Shown: positions 45,492 through 61,938 of the stretch, piece after piece
Layout: every line of letters starts with the position of its first letter
How positions within the stretch are numbered: the stretch's first letter is position 1
Origin: a bacterium
Lineage (GTDB): Bacteria; Patescibacteriota; Minisyncoccia; Phycocordibacterales; Phycocordibacteraceae
Direction: 5' to 3'
DNA: 61,938 bases
Assembly (NCBI GenBank): GCA_021802705.1
Contig: JAJZRL010000005.1
Location: forward strand, 1 to 61,938
Program-made: the position numbers and the translations under genes
The notes under the pieces: generated by a model
Databases searched by the model: none
What the model was told of the DNA's origin: nothing
The model's input: only the letters and a program-made list of their open reading frames with translations

Positions 45492-45563
45492 GAGGAAAGT
45501 ATAGCCGAACGCAAGCTCCCCCGTGAGACGAGGGTGGGTATAACTTACTGGGCGGGAGAACGG

Positions 45564-45636: not shown

Positions 45637-46003
45637 AAACAGCGCAAGAAACGGAAACTGAAAAATCACCTGCCGGCTGTGGCCGGTTTTTTGATTCTAC
45701 CAGAAGCCGTTTAAACTGTCGCTCTTTGTCGGAAAGCGGCAGGCGCCCTAAGGCGCCTGCCGCTTTCCGTGATTCTGAGAAAGAAGTCTGCTCTCTTTTG
45801 TTCCGCCTATCCTGTTCCATTCGAGAGCTCATATGCGGCTCTCGAACGCCACCGGGTTACGTTATCCGGCTTCCGGGTACCGTTTAAAGACGAGTACCAT
45901 CTCTTCATTCCCCGAAGGAAACGATCGACGTGATACTCCTTTCGGGAGTATCGGTTCCAATTGGATATGTTCCACGAACAGCTTCCGCTACCCGTGCCTT
46001 GTT

Positions 46004-46771
46004 CTGTTTTCCCCTCGTATCGCTACGAGGCATGGACTATATCATCATCCGCTCCTCAAACAGCGCTCGCTTCATCGGATGCCATGACCCGACAACGCGT
46101 GCGAAGTCTGAATGCGATGCGGTGCTTATGAAACAACGCCAGTAATTTGGATCGACACGACGACTCGGATTATGGAGTGCGCCGGTTTTGATACCAAGTG
46201 ACTGAAGGATTTCTTTAAGCATCTGCATCTTCTCTCTGTCTTTTTGAACAAGCTGTATATAGAAGAGGGCATCCTGACTGTGCGGTATACCTCCTTCTGC
46301 ATCGAAGAAACCTCGGATATAAGCCGCTTTTTCTTCACTTGTTTTGAGAGACAGAGGATTGAATCGGAAATCGAGAAATGCTGCGGTAGTTTCAAGATCG
46401 TATACATCACGTTTACCTTCTTGATACATCCACGACCGGTGGCCGAGATGCATGAGAAGATTTTTAAGAATCGTTAGCCATTCGGTTCCTTTTTGAGAGA
46501 ATCGAACACGATTCTTGCGACGATACGCATCATGAAGCGCGCCTTGCAGATATGCTTTGATTTCAGATTTCGATTTGAACGGCGATCGGCGTGTAGTCTC
46601 TGAGGGGTCAATTACGACTTCCCTGCTGATTTTCTGCACCCGACGCATTGTCACGGGCATAATGTTTCCATTATACCGCGTAGCGCGGGATTCTCAGGTC
46701 TTCCAGCATATAGCCAATTTTATTTTTCGAGGGATTACTCCCAAGCGTCGCAACACCGGCAGTCTGCCGGT
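46004..46771 (-). mobile_element. 16S insertion 3 (768 nt, group I-like) between AAGUCGU and AACAAGG
   Basis: The exon ends in U and the intron ends in G. Intron GCGAC about 20 nt in can pair with exon GUCGU with a terminal U-G. It contains a LAGLIDADG ORF. Confidence 0.7.
46037..46660 (-). CDS. LAGLIDADG homing endonuclease (two-motif type, degenerate first motif)
   Basis: 207 aa. IRGFFDAEGG (LAGLIDADG-like) and an upstream YLQGALHDAY. It lies wholly inside insertion 3. Confidence 0.75.
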   Translation of the reverse strand: MPVTMRRVQKISREVVIDPSETTRRSPFKSKSEIKAYLQGALHDAYRRKNRVRFSQKGTEWLTILKNLLMHLGHRSWMYQEGKRDVYDLETTAAFLDFRFNPLSLKTSEEKAAYIRGFFDAEGGIPHSQDALFYIQLVQKDREKMQMLKEILQSLGIKTGALHNPSRRVDPNYWRCFISTASHSDFARVVGSWHPMKRALFEERMMI

Positions 46772-46858
46772 ACGACTTAGTCCTTGTCACTGAATTTGCC
46801 GTAGTCCTGCGCGAGGCAGACCTTCGGGCACCCCCAGCTCCCTTGACTTGACGGGCGG

Positions 46859-47694
46859 ATTGCAATAGGCCGAGACGCCTTTGCGTTCCCACGTAGCGAA
46901 CGGATTTCCCGTACTACGCGAGTCCGACAGTTTTTTGATTCATGCGCAACTTGAGTTCACGAATTTCTCCAACCCCTTCTGTAGTCAAATGCTTCCGCTC
47001 TTTTACAAGCTTGGCGATCTTACAGAAGATATCGAAGCTCGCGCTCTTCGTTGCGCTGCGCAACGGATGTTTCCTGAAGAACGGGATAACAATATCTTGT
47101 ATATCCCGTTCTGCACTTACGGTATAGCGATAACACTGACAATGGTTTGCGCGTTGTTCTTTTTGGAAGTACACCGCACCACACCCTATCGTGTTCCGTA
47201 CTTTCTCAAGCAAGTCTTTATCACGTTCTTGCATTTTCAGATGAAAATGCAATTGAACGCGATGTCCTGCTCGATAACGGTCAGAAGCTCCCATGTTCAC
47301 ATAGAAACATCCTTCGCCGTCCGTAAGTCCGACAACATATTCGTTGCTAACCGTCGGAAGTGTCCTTTCCATACGTCCAGTATAACTTGACGTATGGTAC
47401 TACGACACAGCTGACTTCTCATAGGTGTTCATATCTCGATCCCTATGAGATCTCCTTGGGTCATTATCCATTCCGTTCCTTGCATCCGCTCAATGCGATT
47501 GTGAAGCGCTTCCCCATTACTCACCAGAATGGGTCGCGCATACGCTCTGTATCTCTACAGGAGGGCTGCTTTTTGCTACTAGATCTCTCCGCCGACAACC
47601 TCGCGGCCTGCCGACTGTTCGTTCGCTACGCGTGCTTTCGCACGGGTCCGATTTTAACGGACTGGATTGAATAACTACCAAGCACATTTCTGAA
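46859..47694 (-). mobile_element. 16S insertion 2 (836 nt) within the decoding-centre sequence GUACUCA/CCGCCCGUC
   Basis: The flanks reconstitute UGUACUCACCGCCCGUCA. The boundaries do not obey the simple U / terminal-G rule. It contains a LAGLIDADG ORF. Confidence 0.6.
46914..47372 (-). CDS. LAGLIDADG homing endonuclease (single-motif type)
   Basis: 152 aa. YVVGLTDGEGCFYV motif. It lies inside insertion 2. Confidence 0.85.
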   Translation of the reverse strand: MERTLPTVSNEYVVGLTDGEGCFYVNMGASDRYRAGHRVQLHFHLKMQERDKDLLEKVRNTIGCGAVYFQKEQRANHCQCYRYTVSAERDIQDIVIPFFRKHPLRSATKSASFDIFCKIAKLVKERKHLTTEGVGEIRELKLRMNQKTVGLA

Positions 47695-48274
47695 TGAGTA
47701 CAAGACTCGAGAACGTATTCACCCCGGTTTGGCTGACCCGGGATTACTAGCGATTCCGGCTTCATGAGGTCGGTTGCAGACCTCAATCCGTACTGGGGTC
47801 GGTTTTATAGGGATTGGCTCCGCCTTGCGGCATTGCAACCCGTTGTACCGACCATTGTATTATGCGTGCAGCCCAAGGTATCAGAGGGACATGCTGATCT
47901 GGCGTCATCCCCACCTTCCTCTCCCGTGAGGGAGCAGTCTCGCCTGGCCATATAGGCAACAGGCAACGGGGGTTGCGTTCGTTACCCCACTGAAGGGAAC
48001 AGTTCAAACCACGAACTGACGACGACCATGCATCACCTGCCCAACACCCTCGAAGGCTCCTCACCTTTCGGCGAGGATGCAGTTGGGTTTCTAACCTTGG
48101 TAAGGTTCTTCGTTTGTCGACGAATTAAGCCGCATAATCCACCGCTTGTGCGAGTCCCCGTCTATTCCTTTGAGTTTTAATCTTGCGATCGTACTACCCA
48201 GGCGGCTCGCTTACCGCGTTAGCTTAGCCTCACAGAGGGTCGATACTCCGTAAAGCGAGCGAGCAACGTTGAGG

Positions 48275-48308
<34 letters not shown>

Positions 48309-48735
48309 ACCCTGGCTTTCGTGTGTGAGCGTCAGGAACGTACCAGTGCACTGCCTTCGCCTTTGGTGTTCCCCATGATATCAACGGATTTCACCCCTCC
48401 ACCATGAGTTCCGTGCACCTCTTACGCCCTCGAGCCATACCGTTTCCTCCGCTAGCCGCAGGTTAAGCCCACGGATTTCACAAAAGACTAATATGGCCGC
48501 CTCGACACCCTTTACGCCCAATGATTCCGGGTAATGCTTGGGGCCTCTGTATTACCGCTCCTGCTGGCACAGAGTTAGGAGCCCCTTATTCATCGGGTAC
48601 CGTCAATAAACTTCGTCCCCGATAAAAGATGTTTACGTACCGAAGCACTTCATCCATCACGCGGCGTCGCTCCGTCAGGCTTTCGCCCATTGCGGAATAT
48701 TCTCGTCTGCAGCCTCCCGTAGGAGTATGGGCCGT

Positions 48736-49436
48736 CGTTTATTCCATAATTTCTTATGGCACAGACTATACTTTCACCCTCGTTCGCGCGAGGGGCTTGC
48801 GTCTTACAGAATCCGAAGATTCTGTCTTCATCCCGGTTTTCTCCGGGATTCCAGTCGTTACGGGGTCAAACACTCGTATTTCGCGCTTTCCTCCCGTAGA
48901 GGAGTTTAGGCTGCGAATTTTCTGCACTAATGACAGAATACGAATATACGCTCCTTCAGACAGCGTGCTTGGTTTGTGTTTCTCATTTACGCTCATCCTT
49001 TTCAATACTTCAAGAGCCAGGTTTGCCTGGTCTTTCTTTATGAGAAGGAATGGCACGAGACGCGCGAGCACCGCTTTCACTTGGCTTCGTTCTTGGACAA
49101 CCAACTCTGCGAGATTTTTGCGCTTATCGGTTCGGATGACCCCGAAACTTCCAAGCGCTTCTCGCACCAATCTCAATTTACCTATATGCCGCGCATGTTG
49201 GGTGAAATTCACCTTGATGCGCACACGATACGGGAACCGTTTGCTGTGATAACGCTCAAGCGTTGCCACAACAGAACCGTCTCCGTCCAAAAATCCAGCC
49301 AAATATTCGTCTGATGGATAGTGTCGACTTCCCACGGTATTGCCTTTGATGGGTACCATTATACACCCATCAGTCAGGTTCCACCGTTATGAGCAAGATT
49401 TATCATTGGGGATTACTCCCCAAGGAGACAACTTTT
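48736..49436 (-). mobile_element. 16S insertion 1 (701 nt, group I-like) between ACUGAGAU and ACGGCCCAUACUCC
   Basis: The exon ends in U and the intron ends in G. Intron GUCUC (nt 8-12) pairs with exon GAGAU with a terminal U-G. An S-element-like AAAGUAUAGUCUGUGC lies near the 3' end. It contains a LAGLIDADG ORF. Confidence 0.75.
48766..49359 (-). CDS. LAGLIDADG homing endonuclease (single-motif type)
   Basis: 197 aa. YLAGFLDGDGSV motif. It lies inside insertion 1. Confidence 0.85.
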   Translation of the reverse strand: MVPIKGNTVGSRHYPSDEYLAGFLDGDGSVVATLERYHSKRFPYRVRIKVNFTQHARHIGKLRLVREALGSFGVIRTDKRKNLAELVVQERSQVKAVLARLVPFLLIKKDQANLALEVLKRMSVNEKHKPSTLSEGAYIRILSLVQKIRSLNSSTGGKREIRVFDPVTTGIPEKTGMKTESSDSVRRKPLARTRVKV

Positions 49437-49846
49437 ATCTCAGTCCCATCGGTGGGGATCAGGCTCTCACCCCCCCTAAGCGTCGTAGCCTTGGTAAGCC
49501 GTTACCTTACCAACTAGCTGATACTGCGCAGGCAACTCCCGAAGCGAAAAACCTTTACCCTTGCGGGACTATCGGGGATTACCCCGTCTTTCGACGAGCT
49601 ATACCCGACTTCGGGGGATCTACCTACGTGTTACTACCTCGTTTGCCGGTTGTCCTTGCGGACCCCCTTGACTTGCATGACTTATCCACGCCGCCAGCAT
49701 TCACCCTGAGCTAGGATCAAACTCTCATTAAGAATAGGCGGAACAAAAGAATTCATACTTCATTATTTCTCATTCACGTACTTGCACGTATTCGATTTTC
49801 AAAGGTCAAAAGAAACCCCGTCCCGTTACAGCGGGACAGTACCGCT

Positions 49847-59913: not shown

Positions 59914-60031
59914 TCGGGGTGGTCGGATTCGAACCGACGTCCTCCGAGGACTTGTGCTTGCCAGAGATATCCAGTCCTGCAAGGCTACTCGGTGCTCTTC
60001 ATGTTTCCATGTCCGCTGAGCTACACCCACG
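59914..60031 (-). ncRNA. Aberrant 118-nt tRNA-like element downstream of the 5S
   Basis: Canonical T arm GTCGG-TTCGAAT-CCGAC. D-arm signature TAGCTCAGCGG...GAGC with a 13-nt hairpin insert. Acceptor CG(T)GGGTG/CACCCCG with one bulge. A 39-nt segment sits where a 7-nt anticodon loop should be, and no anticodon can be assigned. Confidence 0.4.
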
Positions 60032-60099
60032 AAACGAGTGAGTACATGTCTCCATACACTCACGACACTCACGAATGAGGAACGACTATTCGAGTGTTC

Positions 60100-60218
60100 G
60101 GTTCTGGCGGCTAGCTACTCTCCCCATCTGTAACGATGAGTACCATCGCCGCTAGGAGGCTTGACTGCCGAGTTCGGAATGAGATCGGGTATGACCCTCC
60201 CGCCAAACCACCAGAACC
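60100..60218 (-). rRNA. rrf: 5S rRNA
   Basis: The minus strand reads GGTTCTGGTGG...CCGAACTCGGCAGTCAAGC...GATGGTACT...GAGAGTAGCTAGCCGCCAGAACC. Length 119 nt. Confidence 0.9.
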
Positions 60219-60527
60219 GAACACTCGAAGTGTCGGGAACAAACGAATACGCATACGGTATGCAAACACTAAGTATGACTGTGCTACACAGAGTTCCGCA
60301 CGAGAGACTGGGCGTATTAGTACTCCTCGGCTCAACGCCTCACGACGCTTCCACCTAGAGCCTATCAACCTTGTCATCTTCAAGGGGCCTCATAACGATT
60401 CCTAATCTTGGAGCACGTTTCCCGCTTATATGCTTTCAGCGGTTATCGTCACCCGACATAGCTACTGAGCGGTGCCGCTGGCGCGACAGCTCATAGACCA
60501 GAGGTCAGTTCATCCCGGTCCTCTCGT

Positions 60528-60898
60528 CGCAATTAACTGGACAATTAACCAGTTAAAGATTCCCCTATTTCTAGGAGCGCAGACTATATCTTCATCCTTC
60601 TCCGCTGTCGAAGTTAGGATGATGGCATTTTACCCAATAGGAGCAGTCATTTTCTAAGAAATGATTCCTCAACCTATGAGTCTAGGTATCTTTCAACCTA
60701 AGTCGTTACGGGGTCAACCAAAACATTTCTATTTTTGGCGACTTCCCACGGTATTACCATAGTAGCATTCTAGTCCTCAAGCGAGTTTGATATCCACTGG
60801 ACCGTCGGATACCAACCTCTAAAACCAGACGCACCGTAGGCTTCACCGTTATAAGCCATGTTGTCATCAGAGATCTCTCTCTGAAGTAGCAATTTCTT
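60528..60898 (-). mobile_element. ORF-less group I-like intron (371 nt) inside the sarcin-ricin loop sequence of the 23S
   Basis: The flanks join to CCCUAGU|ACGAGAGGACCGG. The exon ends in U and pairs with intron GCUA (U-G). The intron ends in G. It contains AAGAUAUAGUC, an S-element-like motif. Confidence 0.75.
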
Positions 60899-60961
60899 AC
60901 TAGGGACAACCCTCCTCAAGAATCAACGCCTGTAGTAGATAGGAGACCAACCTGTCTCACG

Positions 60962-61219
60962 CATCTTGTTTTAGCCCCGATTACTCGGGGGATCGGACTG
61001 TAACACCATCGGTTCTCGATGACCAACATTCAGTCTCTCGGGGCAGCCCCGTTTTAAACGGGACATTCCCTCGGTATCGCCCTCTCGTACACAACGAGGT
61101 CGGGTTTTACCGATATCAGTTGATTTGTTTCGCGCGTATTCCTACGCACGACCGCCGTGAATTGTCTTTTCCTCGTGGGTTCAAACCGTGGAATGGCCGA
61201 TGACTGCATCAGCCGCTCT
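60962..61219 (-). mobile_element. ORF-less insertion (258 nt) in the 23S between GGGUUCAAACCGU and CGUGAGACAG
   Basis: The flanks join to a sequence colinear with E. coli GGGUUUAGAACGUCGUGAGACAG. The exon ends in U and the insertion ends in G. The insertion carries a 13-nt perfect complement of the upstream exon end. Confidence 0.6.
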
Positions 61220-61880
61220 ACGGTTTGAACCCAGCTCGCGTACCTTTTTAATTGGCGAACAGCCAAACGCTTGGGAGCTTCTCCACCCCCGCGCTAAGGT
61301 GAGCCGACATCGAGGTGCCGAACTCCGCCGTCGCTATGGACGCTTGGGCGGAACTAGCCTGTTATCCCCAGGGTAACTTATATCCGTTAATCTCTGGCCG
61401 CATCTAAGGCGAACCATCGGTTCACTATGCTCTGCTTTCGCATCTGCTCGGGATGTACCCCTCGCAGTTAAGCCCTCTTTTGCCATTACACTATCGGCAC
61501 GGTTTCCATTCGCGCCTAGAGAACCTTAATAGACTCCTCCGTTACTTTTTAGGAGGATAGCGCCCCACCAAAACTACCCGCCACGCACGGTCCCCCGTTG
61601 GATCCCAACGGGGTTAGACATTGCACACAACAAGATGGGTATTTCACTGACGGATCCACACCAGCCGAAACCGATGCTTCAAATCCTCCCCACTATGCTA
61701 CGCATGCAGCACGCAATGCCAATACGAAGCTGTAGTAAAGCTCCTGGGGTCTTTTCGTCTAACTACAGGTATCCGGCATCTTCACCGGAAGTGCATTTTC
61801 ACCGAGCGAGTCCTCGAGACAGTTTCCCACTCATTACACCATTCGTGCACGTCGGAACTTACCCGACAAGGAATTACGCT

Positions 61881-61938
61881 CAAGTGTTCCTTAAACTTGG
61901 ATCATATCTTCTCCCATTACACACTGCGAGAGCGTGTC
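61881..61938 (-). mobile_element. Probable 3' end of a further 23S insertion that runs off the window
   Basis: The conserved AGCGUAAUUCCUUGUCGGG begins at 61880. The sequence upstream in RNA sense (61881-61938) does not match the expected CCUAAGGU context, and its last nucleotide is G. Confidence 0.4.

Follow-up and report, generated by a model that had tools for sequence, protein, structure and literature searches.

Organization of the rRNA genes

The window analysed here is a 61,938 nt stretch of bacterial DNA (contig JAJZRL010000005.1) whose rRNA genes lie unlinked between positions 45562 and 61938. A 23S–5S pair is followed by about 10 kb of protein genes on the same strand, including those for FtsW, glycosyltransferases and SecDF, and then by genes for 16S rRNA and tRNA-Ile(GAU). 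The 3′ exon of the 23S gene shares 90–94% identity with Kaiserbacteria-type Patescibacteria, as compared with about 70% for bacteria outside the CPR, and the host, as assigned from sequence, is a Kaiserbacteria-like CPR bacterium. Over the ~14 kb locus compared, the window is 99.66% identical to contig DAHVXN010000003.1 of a metagenome-assembled genome in NCBI (GCA_027356665.1), and two ENA contigs also match it closely. The coordinates of the rRNA genes and of the structural elements discussed below are collected in Table 1.

CPR bacteria are well known for rRNA genes rich in introns, and this host conforms to type: its 16S and 23S genes together contain at least six insertions. The 16S gene (45960–49731, minus strand) is split by three of these. 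The Rfam small-subunit match (47656–48849) covers essentially the second 16S exon alone (48735–47695), and the canonical 16S 3′ end, GGAUCACCUCCUUA, was not found at this gene.

The 23S gene carries three further insertions. The window ends inside the first (61881–61938, minus strand), which lies between U1931 and A1932 (...CACUUG followed by AGCGUAAUUCC). In the near-identical NCBI contig (L001, 1–720) the corresponding site is intact (UAAGGU followed by AGCGCAAUUCC), a difference that means either that near-identical strains are polymorphic for this intron or that an assembly is chimeric. The second insertion, of 258 nt (60962–61219, minus strand), separates U2593 from C2594 in the peptidyl-transferase region, which is the published site 23IS12. 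The Rfam group I model does not match this L2593 element even at E ≤ 10. Of 81 loci, 46 contain homologues of it (246–783 nt), whose 3′ ends are of the usual group I kind; a 12–13 bp helix between exon and guide covaries with the exon, and the base opposite the splice-site U is an A in most members, which gives a U–A pair in place of the canonical U·G. The third insertion is the subject of this report. Its GC content is 44%, as compared with about 51% for the 23S region (introns included) and 58–60% for the genome.

Table 1. Coordinates of rRNA genes, intron elements and other rRNA insertions in the window.
Feature	Position	Strand	Remarks
23S rRNA gene, 3′ part	61938..60296	-	Runs off the window end
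23S exon 2594–2656	60899..60961	-	Between the L2593 and L2656 introns
Group I intron L2656 (published site 23IS14)	60528..60898	-	371 nt, without endonuclease gene
P1	60887..60902	-	Exon UAGU (60902..60899) and intron nt 1–12, UAGU/AA-GAAA-UUGCUA
P2 hairpin	60867..60884	-	UCAGAGA-GAGA-UCUCUGA (GNRA loop); 7/7 pairs change on both sides; 97% paired
P3, 5′ strand	60855..60859	-	AUGGC; partner 60626..60622; 4/5 pairs compensatory; 95% paired
P4	60748..60849	-	ACGGU/ACCGU; encloses P5 and a long extension (60841..60756); structure test on 87 sequences
P6/P6a hairpin	60710..60747	-	Position of the LAGLIDADG gene in relatives
P7, 5′ strand	60701..60705	-	CGACU; J6/7 GUAA at 60709..60706; four P7 pairs invariant in 87/87
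P7.1 and P7.2 hairpins	60637..60700	-	P7.1 60700..60683, P7.2 60677..60637; between P7 and P3′
P3, 3′ strand	60622..60626	-	GCCAU; partner of 60855..60859
P8 hairpin	60594..60620	-	81% paired; 7/8 pairs compensatory
J8/7 and P7, 3′ strand	60580..60593	-	J8/7 GAAGAUAU, P7 strand AGUCUG; includes the AAGAUAUAGUC motif (60592..60582)
P9 hairpin	60562..60577	-	CUCCUA-GAAA-UAGGGG; 99.8% paired; 4/5 pairs compensatory
P9.2, extra 3′ hairpin	60533..60556	-	UUAACUGG...CCAGUUAA; common only to the closest relative, L055
Terminal guanosine (omega-G), 3′ splice site	60528	-	G at every true insertion of the site, with a pattern permitting A, C or G
23S 3′ exon	60296..60527	-	Starts at A2657 (ACGAGAGGACC...)
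5S rRNA gene	60215..60102	-	Follows the 23S gene
16S insertion 1	49436..48736	-	After ~E. coli 328; LAGLIDADG_1 ORF
16S insertion 2	47694..46859	-	~1398/1400; LAGLIDADG_1 ORF; weak group II D1-D4 match; published 16IS9
16S insertion 3	46771..46004	-	After ~U1498; group I match 43.2 bits; LAGLIDADG_3 ORF

An insertion within the sarcin–ricin loop

A preliminary description of this DNA had proposed that a group I-like intron interrupts the sarcin–ricin loop (SRL) of the 23S gene, and the boundaries it gave proved exact to the base. The insert comprises 371 nt of the minus strand (60898–60528) and lies between U2656 and A2657 of 23S rRNA in E. coli rrlB numbering. At the 5′ junction the exon ends with ...GGUUGUCCCUAGU (60899) and the intron begins with AAGAAAUUGCUAC... 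(at greater length, AAGAAAUUGCUACUUCAGAGAGAGAUCUCUG). At the 3′ junction the intron ends with ...UUAAUUGCG (60528; at greater length, CCAGUUAAUUGCG) and the exon resumes with ACGAGAGGACCGGG (from 60527; at greater length, ACGAGAGGACCGGGAUG). Removal of the insert in silico yields ...CCCUAGUACGAGAGGACC..., in which the SRL motif AGUACGAGAGGACC is restored as had been claimed, and the ligated junction reads ...GUCCCUAGU/ACGAGAGGACCGGGAUG.

The proposed location after U2656 also holds. The motif AGUACGAGAGGACC starts at position 2654 of E. coli K-12 rrlB (2904 nt), which places the junction between U2656 and A2657, three bases upstream of A2660/G2661. When the window 23S sequence is read from the 3′ junction of the L1931 insertion with the two complete inserts deleted, it gives a single colinear match to rrlB 1933–2884. 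The reported lack of an ORF is borne out as well: no notable ORF was found inside the intron, the largest wholly internal one being of 33 aa, and an ORF of 61 aa on the plus strand extends into the exon.

A family of homologous group I introns

The Rfam model for group I introns (Intron_gpI, RF00028) matches positions 60911–60561 of the minus strand with 40.6 bits (E = 2e-8). This score is under the gathering threshold of 50 bits, yet it is significant, and it is accompanied by large P5 and P7.1/P7.2 insertions that are counted as inserts. A group II intron was also considered and is ruled out, as no group II family matches positions 60000–61938 even at E ≤ 10.

Homologues were sought in one genome per bacterial or archaeal species with a pattern consisting of any non-T base followed by ACGAGAGGACCGGRRTGRAC; a non-T base can serve as an insertion signal because the intact SRL always has a U at this position. 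At least 119 loci in these species-representative genomes matched. Among the matches listed, about 105 are true insertions with a terminal G directly before A2657, six are plain point variants of U2656 and about five are chance matches. The point variants (CCCUAGG/A/C-ACGAGAGG; L038, L065, L093, L096, L099 and L108) occur in six genomes outside the CPR, including members of the Alphaproteobacteria, Lachnospiraceae, Paracoccaceae and Christensenellaceae, and are due either to errors in sequencing or to genuine variation in the SRL.

At least 86 homologous introns allowed the 5′ and 3′ splice sites to be placed, and all of these introns lie between U2656 and A2657. They begin with A(A)...UUGCUACUU, and the GCUA guide is conserved among them. 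The median length in the L2656 family is 768 nt, the shortest member being of 285 nt and the longest of 1040 nt (n = 87).

The breadth of this family bears on whether the interruption could be an assembly artefact or belong to a dead rRNA pseudogene. The window comes from a metagenome assembly, chimeras form easily where rRNA regions are assembled, and two near-identical contigs differ from it locally, one in the presence of the L1931 intron and the other in the P5 extension. However, the intron is found in three independent assemblies, the same site is interrupted in the other genomes noted above, the exons, which are intact, align colinearly with 23S rRNA of E. coli, and CPR genomes usually carry a single rRNA copy (Tsurumaki et al., 2024). 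We give an artefact or a pseudogene only the slightest chance of being the correct explanation.

Secondary structure and covariation

To describe the fold of the family, the paired elements P1, P2, P3, P4, P5, P6/6a, P7, P7.1, P7.2, P8, P9 and P9.2 were drawn by hand on the window copy, where all 83 pairs are canonical. The structure was then applied to 87 sequences aligned with MAFFT, an alignment in which the peripheral domains are imperfectly matched, and the pairs were counted. Across the 87 sequences 90.0% of cells are paired, as compared with 37–46% when the 3′ partners are displaced by one to three columns, and the covariation score is 0.320 as compared with 0.06–0.07 for the displaced controls. 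Fifty-eight of the 83 pairs vary on both sides, and none of 500 column shuffles matches any observed measure. Compensatory changes are abundant in P2, P3, P6a, P7.2, P8 and P9, and P3 and P7 cross to form the group I pseudoknot. The RNA fold of the window intron has a z-score of -3.6.

Pairing between the intron guide GCUA (nt 9–12) and exon UAGU in P1 places a U2656·G9 wobble at the 5′ splice site. This wobble and the next three pairs (G–C, A–U and A–U) are invariant in all 87 sequences, and the outermost U–A pair of the guide is present in 86. The U·G pair with GCUA, the terminal G and the AAGAUAUAGUC motif near the 3′ end had all been singled out in the preliminary description; each was found, and each is conserved across the 87 family members. 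Elsewhere in the structure, P4 is almost invariant (99% paired), P5 shows exchange between C–G and U–A, and the closing pair of P9 is divided between A–U and G–C (57 and 29 sequences respectively).

Two hairpins, P7.1 and P7.2 (or P7.1a), between P7 and the 3′ strand of P3 constitute the subgroup IA arrangement. In our alignment P7.2 is 92% paired with compensation and the P7.1 pairs are 56–62% paired, the lower value probably being due to misalignment. When the segment from P7 to P3′ was folded alone, exactly two hairpins were obtained for 38 of 49 sequences. The modelled architecture is thus designated IA-like, that is, apparently of the subgroup IA type without assignment to IA1, IA2 or IA3.

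No convincing P10 was found in the window copy, in which a single pair between the 3′ exon and an extension of the guide is possible. As P10 is essentially absent, the choice of the 3′ splice site must rest on omega-G and the P9 elements.

These structural data also allow the insert to be compared with the intervening sequences (IVSs) that RNase III removes from some 23S rRNAs. Such elements are likewise extra sequence in the 23S gene that does not appear in the mature rRNA, but they are excised without exon ligation, so that the 23S rRNA is left fragmented, and they lack a ribozyme core and are located in variable helices. Helices 25 and 45 are where such elements are known in bacteria; the site considered here is in H95. 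Fragmenting IVSs are established in bacterial 23S rRNA and are suspected at other CPR sites, but the IVS-like CPR insertions map to 23IS2 and 23IS4 (Tsurumaki et al., 2024). The L2656 family, in contrast, combines an invariant SRL with a complete, covarying group I core whose U·G pair, omega-G and P7 are invariant. The two ends of the element form no long stem, as its predicted folds contain no end-to-end stem beyond 2 bp, and a break within the SRL would ruin a 12-nt universally conserved motif. We consider it very improbable that this element is an IVS. From the profile match, the homologues, the covariation and the fold z-score, the insert at 60898–60528 is a genuine group I intron, far beyond what chance could produce.

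Relationship to the published site 23IS14

The preliminary description left open whether an intron at this exact site had been reported, and we find that it has. In a survey of 348 CPR 23S genes, 14 frequent insertion sites were named (Tsurumaki, Sato, Saito and Kanai, 2024, J Bacteriol, PMC11270868; cited here as Tsurumaki et al., 2024). Group I-containing insertions occupy sites 23IS6–14, and those at positions 1917, 1931, 1952, 2593, 2604 and 2657 (23IS6–8 and 23IS12–14) predominantly encode LAGLIDADG_1 proteins; I-ShaI, the enzyme characterised in that study, belongs to 23IS7 (Tsurumaki et al., 2024). Site 23IS14 is listed as 'position 2657', group I-like and often with LAGLIDADG_1. The insertion sites are placed on the secondary structure in Fig. 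S3 of that work, whose main text never names the sarcin–ricin loop. In the open literature we found no report that joins the SRL with an intron or a homing endonuclease.

The intron described here shares with 23IS14 the junction between U2656 and A2657, a CPR host, a group I fold and, in its long relatives, the endonuclease family (Tsurumaki et al., 2024). It differs in that the window copy has no endonuclease gene and bears an extra P9.2 hairpin seen only in its closest relative. As LAGLIDADG_1 is frequent but not obligatory at 23IS14, the membership of the window copy stands. The site and the family were therefore already published in 2024, and the window copy is one more member. For this site the main text of the earlier survey presents neither a structure nor an analysis of covariation; the present work supplies a family structure supported by covariation and places the endonuclease gene within P6, its start codon and its stop codon both lying in the ribozyme core.

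There are also parallels with the large-subunit introns at L1917, L1931, L1951 and L2593, which are known from Synechococcus C9, Thermotoga, Coxiella, Simkania and green-algal chloroplasts (Cr.LSU/I-CreI) (Haugen et al., 2007; PMC1995217). Those elements are likewise group I introns with a single-motif LAGLIDADG gene of the homodimer type in a peripheral loop, they too interrupt conserved functional rRNA targets, and their patchy distribution similarly suggests homing and loss (Haugen et al., 2007). Unlike them, the L2656 family resides in domain VI, at helix 95, and not in domains IV or V, and it is essentially confined to the CPR among the matches listed.

The endonuclease gene and its probable loss

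Family members of 750–900 nt contain a forward ORF of 159–163 aa with LAYIAGFLDGDGS. Two ORFs from long members were compared with Pfam, and both match LAGLIDADG_1. The protein encoded by the long members is accordingly predicted to be a single-motif LAGLIDADG endonuclease of about 160 aa whose gene lies in the P6 loop. A full ORF with the motif is present in 46 of the 87 family members, 21 members are of 450 nt or less, and the remainder have truncated ORFs. The GUG with which the ORF starts (MGSR...) spans the boundary between P4′ and P6, and the ORF terminates (...GLTP-UAA) in the 3′ strand of P6 and J6/7; both ends of the gene therefore overlap the ribozyme core.

In the window copy, P6a retains GUG-GGA-AGU-CGC-CAA-AAA-UAG, which would encode MGSRQK followed by a stop, together with a ...GACCCC tail. 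The nearest relative, L055, is 95.5% and 88% identical to the window copy in the two halves of the ribozyme and shares P9.2, and it retains a full endonuclease gene of 162 aa. Because a relative with a similar ribozyme and the same extra hairpin keeps the gene, the window copy is most simply viewed as a recent derivative that would have arisen by endonuclease loss.

Distribution of the intron

Among the matches listed, carriers of the L2656 intron are almost all labelled Patescibacteria/CPR, although such labels are imperfect. One carrier labelled Saccharibacteria (L064) has a 23S 3′ exon that is 92% identical to that of the window, and it groups with the Kaiserbacteria-type sequences. Two other SRL-intron carriers on short contigs bear labels from outside the CPR, L102 (JBBRVL010000400.1, 'Chloroflexia') and L052 (CAXUEP010000002.1, 'Mycoplasmatales'). 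Their exons are 72–77% similar to CPR sequences and 71–74% similar to non-CPR sequences, and these contigs are either pieces of CPR genomes that were binned wrongly or true cases of the intron outside the CPR.

Metagenome contigs were scanned for the junction in its uninterrupted form, with clade-specific flanks, and 99 of them matched. Many of these are genomic DNA of several kilobases, and the matches are therefore intron-less alleles rather than transcripts. In full-length matches their 23S exons are 91–95% identical to those of the window, as close as the exons of intron-bearing relatives; none of the 99 exceeds 98% identity to the window where the whole exon is matched. As intron-less and intron-bearing exons are equally close, the distribution of the L2656 intron within the clade is patchy, as that of a homing element undergoing gain and loss should be.

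At shorter range, the near-identical NCBI contig, an independent assembly, carries an L2656 intron identical to that of the window. One of the ENA contigs (L002) agrees with the window over about 10 kb save for 45 differences in intron nt 62–140 (60759–60837), which form the P5 extension. The extension in this contig is of the sequence type found in more distant relatives (L035 and L049), and its exchange reflects either recombination between intron alleles or an assembly that merged strains.

Proposed splicing pathway and its dependence on protein

Our reading of the L2656 element, which we hold with high confidence, is that of an IA-like group I intron of the 23IS14 family that occupies the SRL of a Kaiserbacteria-like CPR 23S gene and has lost its LAGLIDADG gene, and that would splice by the pathway set out here and have spread through its endonuclease. 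The pathway is modelled on the established group I mechanism. In the precursor rRNA, exon UAGU and the intron guide GCUA would form P1 with the U2656·G wobble, and a free guanosine bound in the P7 pocket would attack after U2656. Omega-G would then take the same pocket, and the 3′-OH of U2656 would attack the 3′ junction. Ligation of ...CCCUAGU to ACGAGAGGACC... would create the SRL. We infer that the intron does splice, that it does so unaided, and that the endonucleases of the long members are active.

It is also conceivable that the intron is a group I element which is not autonomous and needs a host factor, or a LAGLIDADG endonuclease/maturase supplied in trans from the same genome. LAGLIDADG proteins can act as maturases (Tsurumaki et al., 2024). 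The window copy has no LAGLIDADG gene of its own that could provide such a function, three other LAGLIDADG ORFs reside in the 16S introns of the window, and P10 is essentially absent. However, a LAGLIDADG maturase normally serves only the intron that encodes it, and the 21 gene-less members of the family keep an intact, covarying core, which argues that the RNA alone is selected to fold. Dependence on protein thus appears unlikely, though it deserves more weight than the other alternatives considered here, and we favour a ribozyme that would act by itself.

Implications for the ribosome and for intron spread

The SRL is the site at which the GTPase activity of elongation factors is stimulated, and it is the target of ribotoxins. 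Since the junction separates the bulged-G motif from the GAGA loop, the SRL would be missing from any unspliced precursor, and efficient splicing of the L2656 intron, as the preliminary description also supposed, is a reasonable inference. CPR rRNA insertions are removed from transcripts, according to the account of Brown et al. (2015) given by Tsurumaki et al. (2024). With a single rRNA operon being usual in the CPR, all translation would depend on L2656 splicing. Every functional 50S subunit in single-operon carriers would accordingly depend on the L2656 ribozyme, a point absent from the catalogue paper.

The target is among the most conserved sequences in biology, and the endonuclease should therefore cut almost any bacterial rDNA; yet, among the matches listed, the family appears confined to the CPR. 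From this one could imagine, for example, that SRL splicing serves as a late checkpoint or throttle that keeps the 50S subunit inert, and that CPR bacteria tolerate or exploit an intron that is then not purely selfish. This idea strikes us as improbable. If it were true, there might be a benefit to slow-growing, host-dependent cells with one rRNA operon.

Cutting of the conserved SRL-encoding DNA by the endonuclease would have driven the spread of the intron to intron-less alleles, and the window copy, having lost the gene, would no longer be able to mobilise itself. The family spans all stages of the homing cycle, with full, decaying and lost endonuclease genes and with intron-less alleles in close relatives. 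The predicted L2656 endonucleases would represent naturally occurring enzymes directed at near-universal SRL-encoding DNA (GGTTGTCCCTAGTACGAGAGGACCGGGATG).
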